From a virus (taxonomy: Duplodnaviria > Heunggongvirae > Uroviricota > Caudoviricetes), in the IMG/VR virus record IMGVR_UViG_638341084_000029: DNA of 23,374 nucleotides. The stretch is one strand, 5' to 3'. Positions 1-7,467 of the stretch are shown here, in pieces. Both the position numbers and the translations under genes were made by a program. Positions within the stretch are counted from its first letter, which is position 1, and every line of letters starts with the position of its first letter. The notes below the pieces were generated by a model. It saw only the letters and a list, made by a program, of their open reading frames with translations, was not told the origin of the DNA and made no database searches.

Positions 1-516
1 GAGCAGGACCGTGATACGTTTGATCCGACGCATGATATTGACCTCTACTGCGATCAGGCCAGCGGTCTTGTGAATATTGCCATTATGGACGGTACTGTCT
101 GGCGTCTGCTGAATGGTTTTAAGCTGTTCCGCGAAAAACTGGATACCCGTCGCGGCTCAAATTCACAACTCGAAACGGCAGTGAAAGACCTGGGGGCGGT
201 GGTGTCTTTCAAAGGGTATTACGGCGATCTGGCCATTGTGGTGGCGAAAACGTCTTATGTGGCAGAGGACGGTACCGAAAAACGTTATCTGCCGGAGGGC
301 ACGCTGGTCCTGGGAAATACGGCTGCAGATGGGATCCGTTGTTACGGTGCCATTCAGGATGCGCAGGCGTTGTCCGAAGGTGTGGTGGCTTCTTCCCGTT
401 ACCCGAAACACTGGCTGACCGTGGGCGATCCGGCCCGTGAATTTACCATGACGCAGTCCGCACCGCTGATGGTGCTGCCGGATCCGGATGAGTTTGTGGT
501 GGTGCAGGTGAAATAA
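1..516 (+). CDS. E: major capsid protein (lambda gpE-like), C-terminal part; 5' end outside window
   Basis: Frame 1 is open from base 1 to TAA at 514-516. Assignment rests mainly on position directly upstream of the FI-FII-Z-U-V block; product ends ..VLPDPDEFVVVQVK. Confidence 0.8.
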   Translation, partial: EQDRDTFDPTHDIDLYCDQASGLVNIAIMDGTVWRLLNGFKLFREKLDTRRGSNSQLETAVKDLGAVVSFKGYYGDLAIVVAKTSYVAEDGTEKRYLPEGTLVLGNTAADGIRCYGAIQDAQALSEGVVASSRYPKHWLTVGDPAREFTMTQSAPLMVLPDPDEFVVVQVK

Positions 517-523
517 TCCGTGA

Positions 524-553
524 GCGGGGGCGAAATGCCCCCGTGTCTTTTTT
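524..553 (+). terminator. GC-rich hairpin plus T6 tract between E and FI (possible partial intrinsic terminator or attenuator)
   Basis: GCGGGGGC (524-531), loop GAAAT, GCCCCCG (537-543), then T-run 548-553. Confidence 0.4.
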
Positions 554-567
554 CACAGGGGGCTGAT

Positions 568-951
568 ATGGCAACAAAAGAAGAAAATCAGAAACGTCTT
601 CGTCAACTGGCTGGCCTGCTGGGGCGCGAGGCGGATATGTCGGGGAGTGCTGCGGATATTGCGCAACGTGTGTCTGAGTGGGAAGAGGAGCTTGCTGCTT
701 CCCGGGAGGGCATTATGCCTGGTGATGAGAGCGGGCCTGAGCAAAATCACACAGACGATGGTGAGCAGTTGCACAACACTGATGCTACGGATGATGTTAA
801 AGCGGTCCGTGTGCGGNAATGCCTGCATGTGATGGGGTATTGCCCGGAGACAGGCCGTCCCGTTGAACTGACGTACCGGGGCATGCGTGTTCTGGTGCCA
901 TCACCACTGGCGACAGCCATGATACAGCACGGAACGGCTGAGCATGCGTGA
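568..951 (+). CDS. FI: FI-like head assembly / DNA packaging accessory protein
   Basis: ATG at 568 preceded by a G-rich RBS. Acidic ~127-aa product in the FI position between E and FII; 3' end overlaps the FII start by 8 nt. Confidence 0.6.
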   Translation: MATKEENQKRLRQLAGLLGREADMSGSAADIAQRVSEWEEELAASREGIMPGDESGPEQNHTDDGEQLHNTDATDDVKAVRVRXCLHVMGYCPETGRPVELTYRGMRVLVPSPLATAMIQHGTAEHA

Positions 952-1297
952 TTTTCAGAATGCCTTTGATGCNGCCCTTGCCGGGGTGGACAGCACGATT
1001 GTTGAAGTGATGGGGCTCTGTGCGCAGTTCACCTCGGGGGCACAGTGTGGCAGCGAAGTTCAGGGGGTTTTTGACGATCCGGAGTCGCTGGGGTTTGCCG
1101 GTAGCGGGGTCCGTATTGAAGGAAGCTGCCCGTCATTATTTGTACGGACGGATACGGTTCGTGCTGTGCGGCGTGGTGACACGCTGACCATTAATGGTGA
1201 GACATTCTGGGTGGATCGTGTTTCTCCGGATGACGGGGGCAGTTGTTATCTCTGGCTCAACCGTGGGCAACCACCGGCAGTTAACCGGCGACGATAA
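944..1297 (+). CDS. FII: head-tail joining (head completion) protein FII
   Basis: 117-aa product, the same length as lambda FII, with recognisable motifs (GVFDDPE, SPSLFVRTD, RRGDTLTI, FWVDRVSPDDGGSC, PPAVNRRR). Contains one N at 973. Confidence 0.8.
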   Translation: MRDFQNAFDXALAGVDSTIVEVMGLCAQFTSGAQCGSEVQGVFDDPESLGFAGSGVRIEGSCPSLFVRTDTVRAVRRGDTLTINGETFWVDRVSPDDGGSCYLWLNRGQPPAVNRRR

Positions 1298-1311
1298 ACG
1301 CAGGGTGAATT

Positions 1312-1845
1312 ATGGCGATAAAAGGGCTTGATCAGGCGATTGAAAATCTGAGCCGGGTTCGTAAAAACGCCATTCCGGCGGCTTCAGCAATGGCCATTAA
1401 CCGCGTGGCCACAACGGCGATTAATCAGTCTTCGTCACAGGTTGCCCGGGAGACCAGGGTGAGCCGGAAACTGGTAAAGGAACGGTCCAGACTGAAACGG
1501 GCCACGGTCAGAAATCCGAATGCCAGAATTATCGTTAACCGCGGTGATCTCCCGGTGATTAAGCTGGGGATCAGGATGCCGGGGCGTCGTCCGGACAGCA
1601 TACTCAAAGCCGGTCAGCATCGTTATCAGCGGGCATTTATTCAGCGATTAAAAAATGGTCGCTGGCATGTCATGCAGCGTGTGGCCGGGAAAAACCGTTA
1701 CCCCATTGATGTGGTGAAAATCCCGATGGCGGCCCCACTGAAACAGGCGTTTGATGAAAACGTTGACCGTATCCGGCGTGAACGCCTGCCCGGAGAACTG
1801 GCATATGCGCTGAAACAACAACTGAGGATTGCGATAAAACGATGA
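1312..1845 (+). CDS. Z: tail completion protein Z
   Basis: 177-aa basic protein in the Z position. Its stop overlaps the U start (ATGA at 1842-1845), suggesting translational coupling. Confidence 0.75.
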   Translation: MAIKGLDQAIENLSRVRKNAIPAASAMAINRVATTAINQSSSQVARETRVSRKLVKERSRLKRATVRNPNARIIVNRGDLPVIKLGIRMPGRRPDSILKAGQHRYQRAFIQRLKNGRWHVMQRVAGKNRYPIDVVKIPMAAPLKQAFDENVDRIRRERLPGELAYALKQQLRIAIKR

Positions 1846-2237
1846 AACATACTGATATCCGTGCTGCAGTGCTGGATGCACTGGAGCTGCATGAACACGG
1901 GGCGACGCTGTTTGATGGTCGCCCCGTTGTTTTTGACGAAGAGGATTTTCCCGCGGTCGCGGTTTATCTGACGGATGCAGAGTATACCGGTGAAGAGCTG
2001 GATGCGGATACCTGGCGGGCCACACTGCATATTGAAGTTTTCCTGCCTGCTCAGGTGCCGGATTCAGAGCTGGATTCGTGGATGGAGTCCCGGATTTATC
2101 CGGCGATGTCCGCGATCCCTGCACTGGCAGGGATGATTACCACGATGGTTCAGCAGGGCTATGACTATCGTCGTGATGACGATATGGCGTTATGGAGCTC
2201 TGCAGATTTGACTTATTCCATTACATACGAGATGTGA
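1842..2237 (+). CDS. U: tail terminator protein U
   Basis: 131-aa product, lambda gpU length, starting [15 protein letters not shown] and ending [11 protein letters not shown]; lies directly upstream of V. Confidence 0.85.
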
Positions 2238-2244
2238 GGACGAT

Positions 2245-2998
2245 ATGCCAACACCAAATCCCCTGGCGCCGGTAAAAGGTGCCGGTACCACTCTGTGGGT
2301 TTACACCGGCAAGGGTGATGCTTATGCAAACCCGTTGTCAGATGATGACTGGCAGCGACTGGCCTAAGGTGAAGGATCTGACGCCGGGCGAGATGACGGC
2401 AGAATCCTACGATGATAACTACCTGGATGATGAAGACGCGGACTGGAGCGCGACCGGGCAGGGGCAGAAGTCTGCAGGAGATACCAGTTTTACGCTGGCC
2501 TGGAAACCGGGAGAAGAAGGTCAGAAAGGGCTTATAGGCTGGTTTGAAAGCGGGGATGTGCGGGCCTATAAAATCCGTTTCCCGAACGGCACGGTGGATG
2601 TGTTCCGTGGCTGGGTCAGCAGTATCGGTAAGGCCGTAACGGCGAAGGAAGTGATCACCCGTACGGTGAAAGTGACCAACGTGGGTAAACCTTCCGTGGC
2701 GGAAGAACGCAGCGAAATTACGCCGGTCACTGCGATTAAGGTGACGCCGACATCTGGTACGGTGGCAAAAGGGAAAACAACAACCCTGACGGTTTCTTTT
2801 GAGCCGGAAAGTGCAACCGACAAAACGTTCAGAGCGGTTTCCGCCGATCCGTCAACGGGAACCATTGCTGTGAAAGATATGGCGATCACTGTGACGGGGG
2901 TTAAGGCTGGAAAAGTGAGTATCCCCGTGATTTCCGGTAATGGTCAGTTTGCCACGGTAGCTGAAGTCACCGTTACTGAAGCGGGCGCTGCAGGGTAA
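2245..2998 (+). pseudogene. V: major tail protein V with C-terminal Ig-like domain; frame broken by one extra base near codon 41 (real frameshift or assembly error)
   Basis: ATG at 2245 gives [40 protein letters not shown] then TAA at 2365-2367. The next frame continues (W)[18 protein letters not shown]... to 2998. Removing one base around 2363-2366 restores a single ~250-aa lambda V-like ORF. Confidence 0.75.
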
Positions 2999-3011
2999 AC
3001 GGAGGTAATAC

Positions 3012-3443
3012 ATGTTTCTGAAAACCGAACAATTTGAATATAACGGTGTGTCCGTCACGCTTTCCGAGCTGTCTGCGCTGCAGCGTATCGAGCATCTTGC
3101 CCTGCTGAAACGACGGGCAGAACAGGCTGAAGCCAGCGGTAACCTGCAGGTGAGCGTGGAAGACCTTGTCAGAACCGGCGCGTTTCTGGTGGCGATGTCC
3201 CTGTGGCATAACCATCCACAGAAAACGGAGTCACCATCAATGAATGAGGCTGTGATGCAGATCGAACAGGAGGTGCTCACCACCTGGCCTGCTGATGCCA
3301 TTGCCCGGGCGGAAGACGTGGTGTTGCGTCTGTCCGGGATGAGCGGGGCTGTTCATGTGGATACGGATATCACCGAAGTGGCGAAAAATAACGCGCTTAC
3401 TGATGATGATTTTTCTGCGGGAAAGTCTTCGACGGCGAGCTGA
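3012..3443 (+). CDS. G: tail assembly chaperone G
   Basis: 143-aa product beginning MFLKTEQFEYNGVSVTLSELSALQRIEHLALL, preceded by GGAGGT RBS; ends with the slippery heptamer just before its stop. Confidence 0.85.
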   Translation: MFLKTEQFEYNGVSVTLSELSALQRIEHLALLKRRAEQAEASGNLQVSVEDLVRTGAFLVAMSLWHNHPQKTESPSMNEAVMQIEQEVLTTWPADAIARAEDVVLRLSGMSGAVHVDTDITEVAKNNALTDDDFSAGKSSTAS

Positions 3444-3883
3444 ATTTTGCCCTCAGACTGGCGCGAGAGATGGGGAGGCCTGACTGGCGCGCCATGCTTG
3501 CCGGGATGACATCCACCGAATATGCCGACTGGCGACATTTTTACCGCACGCATTATTTTCACGATACCCAGCTGGATATGCATTTTTCCGGGCTGACGTA
3601 CGCTGTACTCAGCCTGTTTTTTTGCGATCCGGATATGCATCCCTCTGATTTCAGTCTGCTTGTCCCCCGGCATGAGGAAGAGCAGGTGGAGAGGCCGGAT
3701 GAGGACAAAATGCTGATGCAGAAAGCGGCAGGACTTGCCGGAGGCGTCCGGTTCGGTGGGGACGGAGGGCGCGATATTTTATCGTCTGCGGATGTGGCGG
3801 ATGTCATGGTGGATGATGCCGCATTAATGATGGCTTCAGCGGGGATTTCCGGAGGTGTGAGATATGTCCCAGCCGGTTGGTGA
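3012..3883 (+). CDS. GT: G-T fusion tail assembly chaperone made by programmed -1 ribosomal frameshift
   Basis: Slippery heptamer G GGA AAG at 3419-3425 lies 5 codons before the G stop. The -1 frame is open from there to TGA at 3881-3883 (..GRPDWRAMLAGMTSTEYADWRHFY..), the arrangement known for lambda G/GT. Confidence 0.8.
3419..3425 (+). promoter_or_regulatory. -1 programmed frameshift slippery site GGGAAAG (G/GT)
   Basis: Exact heptamer in the G frame as G GGA AAG, identical to the lambda G-T slip site. Confidence 0.75.
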
Positions 3884-6443
3884 TCTTGTTATTGACCTTA
3901 GTCTGGATGCGGTCCGTTTCGATGAGCAGATGAGCCGGGTAAGGCGTCATTTTTCAGGNCTGGATACNGACGCCAGAAAAACCGCCAGTGCTGTTGAACA
4001 GGGCCTGAGCCGCCAGGCGCTGGCTGCACAAAAAGCCGGGATTTCCGTCGGGCAGTATAAAGCGGCCATGCGAACCCTGCCCGCACAGTTTACGGATATC
4101 GCCACGCAGCTTGCCGGTGGTCAGAATCCCTGGCNGATCCTGCTGCAACAGGGCGGTCAGGTGAAGGACTCCTTCGGCGGGATGATCCCCATGNTCAGGG
4201 GGCTTGCCGGTGCGATCACCCTGCCGATGGTCGGGGTCACCTCGCTGGCGGTGGCGACAGGTGCGCTGGCGTACGCCTGGTACCAGGGGGATTCCACGCT
4301 TTCAGCGTTTAATAAAACCCTGGTTCTTTCCGGTAATCAGTCCGGACTGACTGCCGATCGCATGCTGACGCTCTCCAGAGCCGGACAGGCCGCGGGGCTG
4401 ACGTTTAACCAGGCGAGAGAGTCACTGGCAGCCATGGTGAATGCCGGTGTGCGTGGTGGTGAACAGTTTGATGCCATCAACCAGAGTGTCGCGCGTTTTG
4501 CTTCTGCATCCGACGTGGAGGTGGACAAGGTTGCAGAGGCTTTCGGAAAACTGACCACCGACCCGACGTCGGGGCTGATGGCGATGGCGCGCCAGTTCCG
4601 TAACGTGACGGCAGAGCAGATTGCGTATGTTGCGCAGCTGCAGCGTTCCGGTGATGAGGCCGGGGCCTTACAGGCGGCGAACGATATCGCCACGAAAGGC
4701 TTTGATGAGCAGACCCGTCGCCTGAAAGAAAACATGGGGACACTGGAGACCTGGGCGGATAAAACCGGGAAGGCGTTCAAATCGATGTGGGATGCCATCC
4801 TGGATATCGGTCGTCCGGAATCCTCAGCGGATATGCTCGCCAGTGCGCAGAAGGCATTTGATGAGGCGGATAAAAAATGGCAGTGGTACCAGAGCCGGAG
4901 CCAGCGCCGCGGTAAAACCTCCTCTTTCCGGGCCAACCTTCAGGGCGCATGGGATGACCGGGAAAATGCCCGTCTGGGTCTGGCAGCGGCAACGCTGCAG
5001 TCGGATATGGAAAAAGCCGGTGAACTGGCGGCAAGGGACAGGGCTGAGCGTGAGTCGTCACAGCTGAAGTATACCGGAGAGGCGCAGAAGGCGTATGAGC
5101 GCCTGCTGACGCCACTGGAGAAATATACCGCCCGTCAGGAAGAACTGAATAAGGCCCTGAAAGACGGGAAAATCCTGCAGGCGGATTACAACACGCTGAT
5201 GGCGGCGGCGAAAAAGGATTATGAATCGACGCTGAAAAAGCCGAAGTCGTCAGGAGTCAAAGTGTCAGCCGGTGAGCGTCAGGAAGACCAGGCGCATGCT
5301 GCCCTGCTGGCGCTTGAAACCGAGCTCCGGACGCTGGAAAAACACAGCGGTGCGAATGAGAAAATCAGCCAGCAGCGTCGCGATTTATGGAAAGCGGAAA
5401 ATCAGTATGCGGTCCTGAAAGAGGCAGCCACGAAACGGCAGTTATCTGAGCAGGAAAAATCCCTGCTGACCCATGAGAAAGAGACGCTGGAGTACAAACG
5501 CCAGCTGGCTGAGCTGGGAGACAAAGTTGAACACCAGAAACGGCTGAATGAGCTGGCACAGCAGGCTGCGCGGTTTGAGCAGCAGCAGGGCGCGAAGCAG
5601 GCGGCAATCAGTGCCCAGGCGCGGGGCCTCACCGACCGTCAGGCGCAGCGGGAGTCGGAAGAGCAGCACCTTCGTGACGTGTACGGTGATAATCCGGATG
5701 CGCTGGCGAAGGCCACATCTGCACTGAAGAACACCTGGTCTGCGGAGGAGCAGCTTCGTGGAAGCTGGATGGCCGGTCTGAAGTCCGGCTGGGGCGAGTG
5801 GGCAGAAAGTGCGACGGACAGTTTTTCGCAGGTTAAAAGCGTGGCCACGCAGACCTTTGACGGTATTGCACAGAATATGGCAGCGATGCTGACCGGCAGT
5901 GAGCAGAACTGGCGCAGCTTCACCCGTTCCGTGCTGTCCATGATGACAGAAATTCTGCTTAAGCAGGCAATGGTGGGGATTGTCGGGAGTATCGGTAGCG
6001 CCATTGGCGGGGCTGTTGGTGGCGGCGCATCCGCATCAGGCGGTACAGCCATTCAGGCAGCTGCGGCGAAATTCCATTTTGCGACCGGAGGATTTACGGG
6101 AACCGGCGGCAAATATGAGCCAGCGGGGATTGTTCACCGTGGTGAGTTTGTCTTCACGAAGGAGGCAACCAGCCGGATTGGCGTGGGGAATCTTTACCGG
6201 CTTATGCGCGGCTATGCCACCGGCGGTTATGTCGGTACACCGGGCAGTCTGGCGGACAGCCGGTCGCAGGCGTCCGGGAAGTTTGAGCAGAATAACCATG
6301 TGGTGATTAACAACGACGGCACGAACGGGCAGATTGGACCACAGGCGCTGAAGGCTGTGTATGACATGGCCCGCAAGGGTGCCCGTGATGAAATTCAGGC
6401 ACAGATGCGTGATGGTGGCTTGTTCTCCGGAGGTGGACGATGA
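3864..6443 (+). CDS. H: tail tape measure protein H
   Basis: 859-aa ORF with near-identity to lambda gpH along its length ([15 protein letters not shown].., ..GGLFSGGGR). Starts 20 nt inside the T frame. Contains four N bases. Confidence 0.95.
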
Positions 6444-6769: not shown

Positions 6770-7467
6770 TGCAGGATATCCGGCAGGAAACACTGAATGA
6801 ATGCACCCGTGCGGAGCAGTCGGCCAGCGTGGTGCTCTGGGAAATCGACCTGACAGAGGTCGGTGGAGAACGTTATTTTTTCTGTAATGAGCAGAACGAA
6901 AAAGGTGAGCCGGTCACCTGGCAGGGGCGACAGTATCAGCCGTATCCCATTCAGGGGAGTGGTTTTGAACTGAATGGCAAAGGCACCAGTACGCGCCCCA
7001 CGCTGACGGTTTCTAACCTGTACGGTATGGTCACCGGCATGGCGGAAGATATGCAGAGTCTGGTCGGCGGAACGGTGGTCAGGCGTAAGGTTTACGCCCG
7101 TTTTCTGGATGCGGTGAATTTCGTCAACGGAAACAGCGACGCCGATCCGGAGCAGGAGGTGATCAGCCGCTGGCGCATCGAGCAGTGCAGCGAACTGAGC
7201 GCGGTCAGTGCCTCCTTTGTACTGTCCACGCCGACGGAAACGGACGGCGCTGTTTTTCCGGGACGTATCATGCTGGCCAACACCTGCACCTGGACCTATC
7301 GCGGCGATGAGTGCGGTTATCACGGTCCGGCGGTCGCGGATGAATATGACCAGCCAACGTCCGATATCACGAAGGATAAATGCAGCAAATGCCTGAGCGG
7401 TTGTAAGTTTCGCAATAACGTCGGCAACTTTGGCGGCTTCCTTTCCATTAACAAACTTTCGCAGTAA
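6769..7467 (+). CDS. L: minor tail protein L
   Basis: 232-aa product; TGATG overlap with M; Cys-rich C-terminal region (CTWTYRGDECGY..CSKCLSGCKF). Confidence 0.9.
   Translation: MQDIRQETLNECTRAEQSASVVLWEIDLTEVGGERYFFCNEQNEKGEPVTWQGRQYQPYPIQGSGFELNGKGTSTRPTLTVSNLYGMVTGMAEDMQSLVGGTVVRRKVYARFLDAVNFVNGNSDADPEQEVISRWRIEQCSELSAVSASFVLSTPTETDGAVFPGRIMLANTCTWTYRGDECGYHGPAVADEYDQPTSDITKDKCSKCLSGCKFRNNVGNFGGFLSINKLSQ

Follow-up and report, generated by a model that had tools for sequence, protein, structure and literature searches.

The question raised by this locus is whether the major tail protein gene V of a lambdoid prophage is truly split by a single base, or whether the split belongs to the assembled sequence and not to the DNA of the organism. 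The window, by which we mean the whole stretch of 23,374 nucleotides that was analysed, covers the late (head–tail) half of the prophage, followed by effector cargo and then by the chromosomal gene ybhB. At its head end, 5' of Z, lie the end of the capsid gene, FI and FII, and these are followed on the plus strand by the tail genes Z (1312–1845) and U (1842–2237), both intact as judged from open reading frames and orthologue annotation. V comes next, and is succeeded by the tail assembly chaperone genes G (3012–3443) and T (3470–3883), recognised on the plus strand from their reading frames and a lambda-type −1 slippery site, and by further tail genes (H, 3864–6443; M, L, K and I; J, 8815–12210; lom; and tail-fibre genes). 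As written, V opens on the plus strand with an ATG and runs for 40 codons (2245–2367) before reaching a TAA at 2365–2367, and the remainder of the protein, residues 41–250, is found in the +1 frame of the same strand (2366–2998), where the V-homologous reading begins with AAG at 2366–2368, carries the rest of the tube domain and a Big_2 domain, and ends with TAA at 2996–2998. The GTG start at 2279 assigned mechanically to this +1 frame is meaningless. Both halves described in a preliminary description of the sequence were recovered in this way, and an uninterrupted V reading frame of about 245–250 codons is absent from the window sequence as given.

The nature of the interrupted gene is easily established. 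Deletion of one C from V yields a single open reading frame of 250 codons, as had been predicted for a sequence with one base fewer, and the product of this repaired frame is matched exactly by a public protein (P0031). In Pfam it contains a Phage_TTP_12 domain (PF16461) at residues 18–152, covering the full profile from 1 to 135 with an E value of 2.4e-69, and a Big_2 Ig-like domain (PF02368) at residues 160–241 (E 2.3e-16). Residues 1–245 also align with the solved gpV chains 9mfe, 6p3e and 8iyk at E values of about 1e-124 (best 4e-124), there is a further match to PDB entry 2k4q, and the Ig-like domain matches 2l04. These matches bear out the proposed lambda V-like identity with a C-terminal Ig-like domain in the +1 frame. 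The position of the gene, between U and the G–T–H block with its slippery site, is that of V in a lambda-type tail module according to reading frames and orthologue annotation. By its predicted product the gene is thus an ordinary tail tube gene of the lambda gpV type, a resemblance that is due to homology and not to chance. Taken separately, the two fragments match Phage_TTP_12 profile positions 1–23 (residues 18–40) and 23–135, so that the break, at position 23 of 135, interrupts the fold that forms the tube.

The lesion itself can be located to the base. When the window is aligned with two intact V genes of 753 nt, those of E. coli O103:H2 12009 and phage PhiR12_2, one gap column appears, and the identical single gap is seen against the prophage of FDAARGOS_1059 (L003 below). 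V therefore shows, relative to its intact orthologues, the single-base indel of a frameshifted pseudogene, and the one extra base that had been suspected around 2363–2366 is an additional C at 2363/2364 (plus strand), the window having CC and each of its relatives one C. The change is from GCT to GCCT (CTGGCTAAG becoming CTGGCCTAAG), the local context being CTGGCTAAGGTG in the relatives and CTGGCCTAAGGTG in the window. This C is the sole lesion in V.

Public sequence was searched for the same allele. With a query of 61 nt that has the break at its centre, 3,531 homologous sites were matched in 1,594 complete E. coli genomes (1,601 records); the best identity among them was 60/61, and the extra C occurs at none. 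An exact 37-mer containing the extra C gave no match in the GTDB representatives (one genome per species), in the JGI metagenomes (241 million records) or in IMG/VR, and a 36-mer lacking it, used as a positive control, gave at least 120 matches in each of IMG/VR and the metagenomes. The extra-C allele is private to this record. Among the control matches listed, 203 of the 209 complete V genes are open reading frames of 245–253 codons, and five or six copies (about 3 %) are disrupted, in each case by other lesions; a broken V is an unremarkable minority state in public assemblies.

Two kinds of protein record that might be taken for further examples of a split V were considered and set aside. 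The 40-aa stub occurs in the protein collection, and might be thought an independent case of the frameshift, but the contigs that encode it (JHMH01000125, JHGY01000114, JHLL01000098 and JADDSO010000115, our L005–L008) do not have the extra C. In these scaffolds V is interrupted by runs of N that begin directly 3' of CTGGC(T) and affect codons ~40–107. The protein cluster to which the stub belongs consists of partial V products of 30–54 aa, and the match is a matter of ascertainment, since contig breaks are spread across this zone of V and leave partial products of just those lengths. V codons 30–54 are a habitual zone of contig breaks in draft assemblies with several lambdoid prophages, and databases commonly hold truncated V products of this size. 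An exact 201-aa product starting at the ATG at 2393 is likewise uninformative on whether V is split, as the two short contigs concerned merely begin there.

How far the remainder of the window can be trusted was judged against its nearest relatives. Among complete genomes, FDAARGOS_1059 and the O111:H2 strain 12A match the full window best, with 99.6 % identity over 95 % of the length, the unmatched 5 % being an IS3 element present in the window. Closer matches exist among draft assemblies: GCA_015160795.1 (L015) equals window positions 1–4360 base for base except for the extra C and six Ns, and the Logan assembly of SRR1931189 (L017) equals positions 1–3067 exactly except for the extra C and two Ns, both having been found among contigs that encode the exact repaired V protein; GCA_002466105.1 (L020) is 100 % identical over 17573–23374. 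On these alignments, independent assemblies carry identical copies of two parts of the prophage, and V is intact wherever it is covered. Zero substitutions separate the window from its closest assemblies over ~10 kb, and within V nothing but the extra C differs from L015. Downstream of the break there is no secondary decay, so that a real lesion would have to be very recent.

A generally poor assembly was rejected, for outside the zone of Ns there are no unexplained indels relative to the relatives, and in the 23 kb as a whole there is none besides the extra C. The sole other single-base indel relative to the FDAARGOS_1059 prophage is an extra A at 19502 in the A-run of cif, and this is confirmed by eight independent contigs and gives the canonical Cif of 282 aa (PMC3202828). 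In that gene (18691–19539), whose A7 run lies at ~19496–19502, the run in the two closest complete genomes (L003, L004) is shorter by one A and their product has 275 aa; the cif frameshift belongs to them and not to the window. The assembly is accurate elsewhere and is not ridden with indels, a point that speaks against an artefact in V and in favour of a real extra C, which is after all present in the sequence as given.

The immediate surroundings of V are another matter. Six single Ns stand at 817, 973, 3959, 3968, 4135 and 4194; the preliminary description had seen them and took them for a mark of imperfect assembly elsewhere, and they are indeed real, but they delimit a mixed-copy zone that contains the frameshift. 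Within positions 1–4360 the L015 type and the L003 type differ at 47 sites, 41 of which fall in a patch at 2727–3549, and the remaining six are exactly the six N positions, where the alternatives are, in position order, A/C, T/A, A/T, T/C, G/T and C/T. The chance of such a coincidence is 1/C(3537,6), or ~4e-19. Because Ns occupy all of these copy-distinguishing sites, they mark unresolved conflicts between two versions of the prophage and not random low-quality bases; their appearance is that of ambiguity calls once made where two copies had been merged. In the flanks, which are 0.17 % divergent, each distinguishing site is written as N, and in the patch, which is 5 % divergent, none is, a pattern from which we infer that the assembler probably kept two copies apart at 5 % divergence and collapsed them at 0.17 %. 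An identical pattern of Ns would be expected from a mixed template or from a consensus guided by a reference. The merged, ambiguous consensus, defined by these six non-patch differences, extends from 817 to 4194 and includes the extra C, the nearest Ns being ~1.4–1.6 kb from the break.

The patch was characterised by a three-way comparison of the window with the orthologous prophage of FDAARGOS_1059 (L003) and a paralogous prophage of the same genome (L011). The window tracks the orthologue up to 2695, follows the paralogue throughout 2727–3549 (41 of 41 variable sites; plus strand, comprising the 3' part of V, G and the 5' part of T, and free of Ns), and from 3562 onwards agrees with the orthologue again. 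Both independent draft contigs, L015 and L017, share this mosaic, which no complete E. coli genome has (best match over 2100–3100, 98.1 %); it could be a real gene conversion between prophages or a recurrent assembly chimera. Two other segments, 4394–4514 and 6960–7437, also differ from the FDAARGOS_1059 prophage, and there the paralogue is followed at some sites only.

Taken together, the private allele, the otherwise identical assemblies, the compromised local consensus and the lack of secondary decay tilt the balance, on sequence comparison, towards an artefact: the extra C is probably an error of consensus or assembly that the DNA of the organism does not contain. The allele is found nowhere else and sits in a stretch that bears independent signs of an unreliable consensus. 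Reads from two near-identical lambdoid prophage copies would have been merged, and the additional base would have arisen as the consensus was built, either from a base-versus-gap conflict or from a context-specific miscall at GGC(C)T. The true V would then be a single reading frame of 250 codons, and V would set no limit on tail production. The choice between a real lesion and an error, previously left undecided, thus now leans to error on the uniqueness of the allele, the identical assemblies and the N zone.

One route to such an error was rejected. If the extra C were a C/T polymorphism between paralogues that had been written twice, a GCC-AAG version of the site should exist, and it is absent from complete E. 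coli genomes, in which a query for it finds 59/60 at best. The break column is moreover invariant in L003, L011 and L015, which counts against an artefact, and, as this column does not vary and GCC-AAG is nonexistent in the complete genomes, a simple mixture of C and T cannot explain the extra base.

That the extra C is instead a genuine, very recent and private insertion, inactivating V either in the prophage as such or in one copy of a collapsed pair, we consider rather unlikely, if well within the range of serious alternatives. Decay is common among prophages, this element already has IS3 in a tail-fibre gene, and ~3 % of V copies among the public contigs listed are disrupted. A conflict between base and gap is written out as a base, and a true lesion in one of two merged copies would for that reason be indistinguishable from an error; related genomes hold 5–8 prophages that carry V, and experiments with O157 Sakai have led to the proposal that defective lambdoid prophages complement one another (PMC2669165). 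Against a genuine insertion stands the fact that no other assembly has the allele, including the two with identical flanks (L015 and L017). An indel in a gene of 753 nt is unlikely a priori given zero substitutions relative to those assemblies over ~10 kb, an expansion from one C to two is not a typical slippage hotspot, and the allele lies in demonstrably ambiguous consensus.

A third reading takes the break as real and bypassed by design, through a +1 shift at GCC-UAA-G or through re-initiation at a downstream GTG. Its appeal is that an in-frame GTG (2369–2371) begins 1 nt past the TAA and that the ancestral protein is regained exactly if one base is skipped. The context of the break, CUG GCC UAA G, offers no slippery P-site codon, however. 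The P-site GCC re-pairs poorly on CCU, with what base-pairing rules indicate to be a mismatch at the first codon position. UAA followed by G is an efficient context for termination. None of eight motifs resembling a Shine–Dalgarno sequence (GGAGG, AGGAG, GAGG, AGGA, GGAG, AGGG, GGGG and GGGGG) occurs upstream of the break within 2336–2367. The shifted arrangement is conserved in none of thousands of copies, with no instance in complete E. coli genomes, GTDB representatives, metagenomes or IMG/VR, where the unshifted one is abundant, and the split falls inside the fold of the tube domain. What a conserved signal looks like can be seen nearby, in the genuine G–T site, where the −1 slippery heptamer G GGA AAG is intact at 3419–3425 and a simulated shift produces an open G–T fusion. 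A designed bypass is accordingly very improbable, and programmed frameshifting at V, lacking slippery codon, SD-like stimulator and conservation alike, is rejected as excluded in practice; the earlier proposal that production of the tail tube would depend on rare frameshifting is too strong and finds no support in these signals. Exceedingly improbable, too, is a real extra C with the split V still expressed, whether by a low-level +1 shift or as a re-initiated tube protein in two pieces, an arrangement that, if true, would throttle tail production in an effector-carrying prophage.

The state of the rest of the element bears on what a broken V would mean. An IS3 of 1258 bp lies on the minus strand at 14393–15650, flanked by a 3-bp target duplication (TTA at 14390–14392 and 15651–15653), and interrupts a small 89-codon gene for a tail-fibre C-terminal domain (14257–15787). 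Its identity to other IS3 copies is 99 % or more, the orthologous prophages L003 and L004 lack the insertion, and it is undoubtedly a genuine structural lesion of this prophage, in which real decay has thus begun. Beyond it, the right end of the prophage by ybhB–bioA holds the effector cargo (15964–22219), which comprises nleB2 (15964–16944), an nleC remnant (16978–17268), a tail-fibre-assembly remnant, nleH (~17586–18467), cif, an integrase fragment (~19649–19918, minus strand), an nleG-like DUF1076 gene (20066–20641) and nleA (20981–22219, minus strand). In strain 12A, IS2 and IS679 have inserted in the effector-cargo region as well.

If the extra C is an error, as we favour, V is intact and annotation as a pseudogene is unwarranted. 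Were it real, V would encode a stub of 40 residues, the prophage would have no tube protein of its own and would alone make no tails, and the lesion would be one more private knockout in an element already hit by IS3. Even so, to call the prophage tail-defective and hence cryptic is too strong. Related genomes contain 5–8 sites per genome that match V or the tail module, and one of these modules matches the window at 99.5 % identity in G, T and the 3' part of V; co-resident lambdoid prophages with a near-identical V could probably supply gpV in trans. In O157 Sakai many defective lambdoid prophages were still released and transferred, which the authors of that work explained by complementation of morphogenetic defects together with recombination within the prophage pool (PMC2669165), and the cryptic state does not follow automatically where related prophages with near-identical V may complement in the same manner. 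The matter is of little biological weight, the finding being ordinary whether the extra C is an artefact, a real mutation or a site of recoding, and not novel on either of the two likely readings. Its use is as a practical warning about data quality: in the N zone, neither a single-base lesion nor a mosaic junction should be read as biology without read-level confirmation, nor, short of that confirmation, is either fit for judging the inducibility of a phage that carries the effectors cif, nleA and nleH.

Several known systems provide a measure for these readings. Lambda gpV shares with the repaired V its two-domain layout (PF16461 and PF02368; PDB 2K4Q, 2L04, 6P3E, 8IYK and 9MFE), and the lambda tail module shares the order Z–U–V–G–T–H and the G–T slippery site; the window differs in that its V frame is broken after codon 40 by one C and in that the sequence of its Ig-like domain is a mosaic derived from the paralogous prophage type. 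The +1 frameshifting of prfB (RF2) has the same outward form as the window, with a stop in the zero frame and the protein continued in +1, but V has no slippery codon of the CUU-U type, no upstream SD-like stimulator and no conservation. The defective lambdoid prophages of EHEC and EPEC, such as those of the Sakai pool, have point lesions in morphogenesis genes, where the window has an IS and, if real, a frameshift; like them, the window carries nleB2, nleH, cif and nleA and has relatives whose genomes hold several near-identical tail modules, and unlike theirs its frameshift is common to no relative and may be absent from the actual DNA. Lastly, although the rest of the window is without further errors, comparison of the sequences gives it a likeness to the collapsed-repeat artefacts of multi-prophage drafts, in which, as here, Ns fall on the sites that distinguish the copies and a private indel lies within the collapsed zone.
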